Sequence record: MT764206.1
Direction: 5' to 3' (one strand)
DNA: 64,000 nucleotides
From: Escherichia phage JEP6
Below, piece after piece: positions 41,127 to 41,582 of the stretch. Positions within the stretch are counted from its first letter, which is position 1. Every line of letters begins with the position of its first letter. The translations under genes were made by a program, and so were the position numbers. The notes below the pieces were generated by a model. The model did no database searches, had not been told where the DNA came from, and saw nothing but the letters and a program-made list of their open reading frames with translations.

Positions 41127-41582
41127 TTATTTTAAATCATCTGCCCAATCGAGTTTAAGAGGCTCTTTGTATTCACGATCTAATACGACCGGAATTTGTA
41201 CATCACCGCTAAATGATAAGGGCCCAACATTATAAGACAATGTTATATGCGGTGTGTAATCATCAAAATCATGTGTAGCACCTAGTGCCCGCGCATACAT
41301 GTGTCGACAGCGCAGATATTCAGAATCTAGCACAAGTACAAGAGTCGATCCATCTTGTGTTTTCCATACTTCTAAATGTCCAGAAGAAGCTACTTCAAAA
41401 CTTCCGCTTGATGGAACATACGGAACATTTACTCTTGAATAACATATGGTCGAATGAATTTTTTCTCTAGGAACTGGATTAGGAACACGTAAAGAGCGCT
41501 GGAGTTCTTCCAGCGCATCAAGTGTTAATTCTGAAAACTTAGCTGCTACATAAAGACCCGTTGAAAAGTCTTTAAATTCCAT
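41127..41582 (-). CDS. 57B: 2H-phosphoesterase family protein gp57B (Acb1-type anti-CBASS cyclic-oligonucleotide phosphodiesterase)
   Basis: 151 aa; two HxT motifs (HSTICY and HITLSY); immediately downstream of 57A. Confidence 0.75.

Follow-up and report, generated by a model that had tools for sequence, protein, structure and literature searches.

A Tequatrovirus gene 57B predicted to encode the anti-CBASS 2H phosphoesterase Acb1

The open reading frame (ORF) downstream of 57A in the 64,000-nucleotide stretch of DNA analyzed here (the window) is, judged from its sequence, almost certainly acb1 (T4 gene 57B) of a Tequatrovirus and is predicted to encode a small 2H phosphoesterase with anti-CBASS function. 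It is a single ORF with an ATG start and 151 codons followed by a TAA stop, which is counted in the coordinates (ORF listing; Table 1). A BLASTP comparison with T4 Acb1 (57B; NP_049750.1) revealed identity at 151 of 151 positions, corresponding to T4 residues 2 to 152. Furthermore, the Pfam family Acb1 (PF23474) was matched with 202.7 bits over profile positions 1 to 144 of 144 (curated cutoff, 27 bits; E = 2.6e-60). The best match among solved structures was 7T26/7T27 (E = 4.1e-62 over 141 residues), which is Acb1 of Erwinia phage FBB1 (PMC9117128). The first-pass annotation had read a 151-aa ORF downstream of 57A, with the two HxT motifs HSTICY and HITLSY, as an Acb1-type 2H phosphodiesterase. 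Its coordinates and length agreed with the ORF listing, to which we add the minus strand, and both motifs were found again in the raw sequence and by script. The reading itself is supported by the complete identity to the T4 protein together with the Pfam and 7T26 matches. In the alignment with T4, which had been named beforehand as a check, neither HxT motif was lost, and the similarity to Acb1 was full.

Two HxT tripeptides might occur by chance in a protein of 151 aa, but whole-protein matches such as these could not. When 50,697 phage records were searched with tblastn, 498 of them matched at an identity of at least 99%, phage T6 at 100%; the same 151-aa sequence is encoded by many Tequatrovirus records, T6 among these. 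The compact 2H phosphoesterase fold is indicated by the sequence homology to 7T26 (141 aligned residues). Since the single-sequence AlphaFold2 model (mean pLDDT, 37.9; pTM, 0.30) was too poor for an independent confirmation, membership in the fold rests on this match. NCBIfam contained no family matching the window protein, which speaks neither for nor against the Acb1 assignment. Nothing in the sequence runs contrary to the acb1 identity. Two ORFs on the plus strand lie inside acb1 (61 aa, 41285..41470; 47 aa, 41299..41442). We dismissed both, since they run antisense to a gene whose product is identical in T4 and no evidence speaks for them.

Table 1. Coordinates of acb1, its functional elements, and related features in the window
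Feature	Coordinates	Strand	Basis or remark
57B/acb1 coding sequence	41127..41582	-	ORF listing, T4 identity, Pfam PF23474, PDB 7T26
First catalytic HxT motif, HSTICY, residues 43-48	41439..41456	-	H43, T45 = T4 H44, T46; reverse complement CAT TCG ACC ATA TGT TAT (read from the sequence and by script)
Second catalytic HxT motif, HITLSY, residues 112-117	41232..41249	-	H112, T114 = T4 H113, T115; reverse complement CAT ATA ACA TTG TCT TAT (read from the sequence and by script)
C-terminal lid, residues 144-151 (T4 145-152), including W146 (T4 W147)	41130..41153	-	
57A, tail-fiber assembly chaperone, 80 aa, directly upstream of 57B	41582..41824	-	Pfam GP57, 168.5 bits
Overlap TAATG of 57A stop and 57B start, shared base 41582	41580..41584	-	
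Gene 1 (dNMP kinase), which heads the likely 1-57A-57B unit	41824..42537	-	Pfam DNMK, 346.7 bits
Candidate T4 middle promoter (MotA box TGCTTCA, 11 nt, TATAAT), ~25 nt before the ATG of gene 1	42561..42589	-	Motif scan
Candidate late-promoter core TATAAATA within gene 1	42180..42187	-	Motif search
Vs.4/Acb2 homologue (cyclic-nucleotide sponge)	29834..30097	-	97.7% identical to T4 Vs.4; Pfam Acb2_Tad1_hairpin, 69.7 bits

The identity of the protein, its functional residues, and its genomic context were established in the window itself. The two H-x-T/S motifs that characterize the 2H phosphoesterase superfamily are present as HST (residues 43 to 45) and HIT (residues 112 to 114). In T4 Acb1, the HxT/HxT tetrad H44, T46, H113, and T115 performs acid-base catalysis, the aromatic residues Y12, W74, F107, and W147 stack on bases, and E141 touches the adenine N6 (PMC9117128). 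T4 residues 145 to 152 form a lid over bound 3'3'-cGAMP, with W147 stacking on a base; the H44A variant is catalytically dead, and H44A/H113A is inactive (PMC9117128). A script comparison revealed that all nine residues named in that paper are kept in the window protein, each at its T4 number minus one, so that Y12, W74, F107, W147, and E141 correspond to positions 11, 73, 106, 146, and 140. The lid sequence is exactly that of T4.

We then aligned 11 family members with identities down to 30%, namely, the window protein, T4 and FBB1 Acb1, and the homologues of eight further phages (Muldoonvirus, Krischvirus, Tulanevirus, Lazarusvirus, Pseudotevenvirus, Schizotequatrovirus, Slopekvirus, and Salicola phage SCTP-2). 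H43, T45, H112, T114, P111, R93, Y109, and E137 were invariant among the 11 sequences. The Acb1 homologues of Pseudotevenvirus and Slopekvirus are 190 to 207 aa long (Cronobacter phage leB, L008:1513-2082; Klebsiella phage 150040, L010:1459-2079). They share a conserved C-terminal extension of ~50 aa (…EHIE.RGDKWV.LNHDRTKELGEYDSK…), and Trp is absent from the position that aligns with W147 of the lid. In lid and substrate range, these homologues may differ from the window protein.

The chemistry and the anti-CBASS phenotype that we propose for the window protein are those published for the identical T4 protein. The window protein would cut cyclic di- and trinucleotides at the 3'-5' bonds on the 3' side of adenosine. 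The aromatic residues would stack on the bases of the cyclic-nucleotide ligand, one glutamate would read the adenine N6, and the C-terminal lid would shut over the ligand. In a metal-free reaction driven by the two HxT motifs, the 2'-OH of adenosine would then attack the 3'-5' phosphodiester bond, and a linear product, e.g., GpAp, is expected to form via a cyclic phosphate intermediate. With the signal destroyed, the CBASS effectors (nucleases and phospholipases) would stay inactive, the infected cell would not die early, and the phage could complete its cycle.

For T4, this function is backed by experiments. Acb1 was the sole activity degrading 3'3'-cGAMP in lysate of T4-infected cells (PMC9117128). 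A T4 Δacb1 mutant grew normally without CBASS and suffered a >300-fold loss on CBASS hosts; CBASS operons of Yersinia aleksiciae and E. coli restrict this mutant. As an independent finding, 57B was depleted from a T4 transposon library on a CBASS host and was thus conditionally essential there. The first-pass annotation had called the gene a candidate anti-CBASS factor. This reading was right, but the word "candidate" understates the case, since the biochemistry, the knockout phenotype, and the transposon library result were all obtained in T4 with exactly this protein sequence. We infer that the protein also has anti-CBASS activity in its own phage and hosts. In this sense, the acb1 gene described here is an already known entity, for which gene, structure, mechanism, and phenotype were published in 2022 for the identical protein.

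The main natural target of an intact acb1 could also be a cyclic-trinucleotide pathway other than CBASS, such as type III CRISPR signaling via cA3, a role proposed by the Acb1 authors. We consider this unlikely. The direct in vivo evidence is all for CBASS, and Acb1 is unable to cleave cA4, since it does not take rings larger than three bases; neither does it cut the 2'-5' bond of 3'2'-cGAMP (PMC9117128). A role against type III CRISPR would extend the anti-CBASS explanation rather than replace it.

According to RefSeq, the orthologue in T4, SG1, and many other records is an "RNA ligase," and PHROG 755 carries the same label. The product could then be a LigT-like 2'-5' RNA ligase or an RNA-repair 2H enzyme acting on RNA ends, e.g., in tRNA repair. 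The window protein is indeed a member of the 2H superfamily, as is LigT, and acb1 is located ~2 kb from the phage tRNA cluster. However, Pfam 2_5_RNA_ligase2 (PF13563) was matched with 13 bits against a cutoff of 27 (E = 0.11) and at residues 80 to 122 only, and no NCBIfam match supported an RNA ligase. Moreover, the identical T4 protein accounts for the 3'3'-cGAMP degradation and the CBASS-specific phenotype described above. Like Acb1, the LigT branch has two HxT/S motifs and uses acid-base chemistry on a phosphodiester or a cyclic phosphate, but it acts on RNA ends, whereas Acb1 acts on a cyclic oligonucleotide signal. We regard an RNA ligase as very improbable and rejected the label, whose only support is superfamily membership; it appears to stem from superfamily-level similarity and not from an assay. 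Identification of the gene as acb1 corrects a misleading database label ("RNA ligase" or "hypothetical protein"). In public records, acb1 is mostly found under one of these two names. Among 40 sampled records, a single one read "anti-CBASS protein Acb1" and another "RNA ligase/cyclic nucleotide phosphodiesterase." The databases have not caught up with the 2022 characterization of Acb1.

At the DNA level, the 456-nt acb1 differs from its T4 counterpart at five nucleotides, all five differences being synonymous, and from that of phage SG1 at none. The neighboring 57A has ten differences from T4, which cause two amino acid changes. The purely synonymous change in acb1 is consistent with an active enzyme under purifying selection. 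A DNA alignment of the 57A/57B junction revealed GAATAATGG in the window and in SG1 and GAATGATGG in T4. At position 41583, a G-to-A exchange makes the 57A stop codon TAA in place of TGA, and the first ATG of the T4 pair is lost. Because of this loss, the window product has 151 aa and that of T4 has 152. The T4 57B product begins with MMEF and the window product with MEF, i.e., at T4 Met2, which explains why the window numbering is that of T4 minus one. Since a motif scan upstream of the 57B ATG detected no strong Shine-Dalgarno sequence, we infer that 57B translation is coupled to that of 57A.

The window is a Tequatrovirus genome. The nearest record is Salmonella phage SG1 (99.6% identity over 2.1 kb and 98.0% over 24 kb), and no record identical to the window was present in the phage record collection searched. 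On the minus strand, the gene order is 4, 2, 3, 1, 57A, 57B, ipI, trna.4, trna.3, trna.2, and the tRNA cluster, as in T4 and SG1; 57A thus occupies the same position as in T4. The block 3-1-57A-57B was found in T4, in SG1, and in the loci of seven further Straboviridae genera (Muldoonvirus, Krischvirus, Tulanevirus, Lazarusvirus, Pseudotevenvirus, Schizotequatrovirus, and Slopekvirus) and was absent from the locus of the jumbo Salicola phage SCTP-2. For Acb1, the position after 57A in T4-like genomes is context and is not strictly defining.

The stop codon of gene 1 overlaps the start of 57A, and genes 1, 57A, and 57B are probably cotranscribed. Upstream of gene 1, a consensus match suggests a middle promoter, which is kept in T4 save for two spacer bases. 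It was missed by a pattern search for MotA boxes with fixed spacing, since its spacer differs. This candidate fits the middle/late expression of T4 57B, which transcript atlases place in the middle/late class; in T4, Acb1 activity was seen ~15 min into infection. The late-promoter core in gene 1 is weak evidence. It lies inside coding sequence, so its conservation says little, and TATAAATA cores were not above chance in the window (15 found versus 12.4 expected). As both the middle and the late promoter are consensus matches, and given the chance-level number of late cores, we treat both as candidates only. A generic scan for sigma-70 promoters and terminators detected no more sites than in shuffled sequence and says nothing about 57B expression; it found no terminator between 57B and ipI.

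Directly downstream of acb1, ipI is located on the minus strand (40767..41054; Pfam IPI_T4, "nuclease inhibitor," 174.1 bits). IPI* is an inhibitor of the GmrSD restriction enzyme; two unrelated antidefense genes would then adjoin here. The minus strand has two copies of one putative extended sigma-70-like promoter (TTTACA, 17 nt, TACTAT, preceded by TG), before ipI (41085..41113) and before trna.4 (40719..40747). In the copy before ipI, the -10 element coincides in part with a 13-bp hairpin (41075..41104).

In addition to acb1, the window carries a homologue of T4 vs.4, which has been named acb2 in the literature. Both known T4 anti-CBASS genes are thus present, ~11 kb apart. The phage is predicted to be resistant to CBASS signaling with adenine-containing 3'-5' cyclic di- and trinucleotides. 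Both genes also matter for Panoptes guards. Type II Panoptes, which senses the loss of cA3, restricts Tevenvirinae with intact acb1 (Bas35 to Bas37) and is evaded by Bas43, which has an acb1 nonsense mutation, and by Bas35 escapers with acb1 mutations. The necessary trigger of type I Panoptes is T4 acb2, not acb1. The presence of acb1 and acb2 therefore predicts sensitivity to such guards, which would be relevant if the phage were considered for therapy or host range work.

Since acb1 is a liability on Panoptes hosts, the copy in the window lineage could be silent or decaying, as in the acb1-null Tevenvirinae just mentioned, of which there are both natural and selected ones. Nevertheless, the window gene is full length without frameshift or premature stop, each functional residue is intact, and both the 57A junction and the upstream region agree with their counterparts in functional T4. 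Since the ORF is complete and its differences from T4 are all synonymous, we consider decay or silencing extremely improbable. Also quite unlikely, in our estimate, is a wider role: a second substrate or function of Acb1 beyond CBASS (cA3 of type III CRISPR, or a housekeeping role tied to genes 1 and 57A, with which the coupling of acb1 is conserved throughout Straboviridae) or a joint shaping of host range by Acb1 and Acb2 via Panoptes-type guards. Neither, if real, would be specific to the window.

Other observations concern the gene content of the window relative to T4. Next to acb2, vs.5 (30090..30311, minus strand) is a 73-aa acidic ORF whose frame differs after residue 17 from the 58-aa vs.5 of the T4 reference; the reference annotation may be a frameshifted version. 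A 210-aa HNH-like ORF (39114..39746, minus strand; Pfam HNH, 17.3 bits, below the cutoff of 21.4) occupies the site of tRNA-Gln in T4 and SG1, and ARAGORN detected seven tRNAs in the window, with Gln absent. This ORF is found at an identity of at least 95% in ~60 phage records, e.g., ACG-C40 and CM8, under the name of HNH endonuclease, and it is a mobile homing-endonuclease insertion. Furthermore, T4 ipIII, denV, and the HNH genes mobB, mobC, and mobD had no tblastn match in the window at E ≤ 1e-5, and ipII and e are 98 bp apart where T4 carries ipIII (region 28000..33100). These absences are variation in internal-protein and homing-endonuclease content.

Among the known systems, T4 Acb1 is the closest. 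Its neighbors and orientation are alike, as is the downstream intergenic region save for 2 bases; unlike the window gene, T4 has an extra annotated first Met, and the window gene carries the five synonymous substitutions. Acb1 of Erwinia phage FBB1 (7T26, apo; 7T27, complex with 3'3'-cGAMP) shares the HxT/HxT tetrad, Y12, E141, W147, and the lid. However, it is 68% identical to the window protein in the family alignment, has F for window W73 and Y for window F106, both conservative swaps of aromatic residues, and has one additional residue following the position that corresponds to residue 79. In a summary of the study by Hobbs et al. in Cell (PMC12064943), the poxvirus cGAMP phosphodiesterases are described as resembling Acb1 in the phosphoesterase fold, in active-site residues that align, and in having a substrate lid, and as able to substitute for acb1 in recombinant phage. 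By the same description, they differ in being proteins of eukaryotic viruses and in their N-terminal lid, that of Acb1 being C-terminal (PMC12064943). Acb2 (T4 Vs.4), Apyc1, poxin, and the ring nucleases are functional analogues, which all remove nucleotide immune signals and were described in the Acb1 paper as structurally distinct from Acb1. Acb2 sequesters the signal, whereas Acb1 cleaves it. Apyc1 has cyclic mononucleotides as its substrates and is a metal-dependent enzyme with an MBL fold (PMC9117128).
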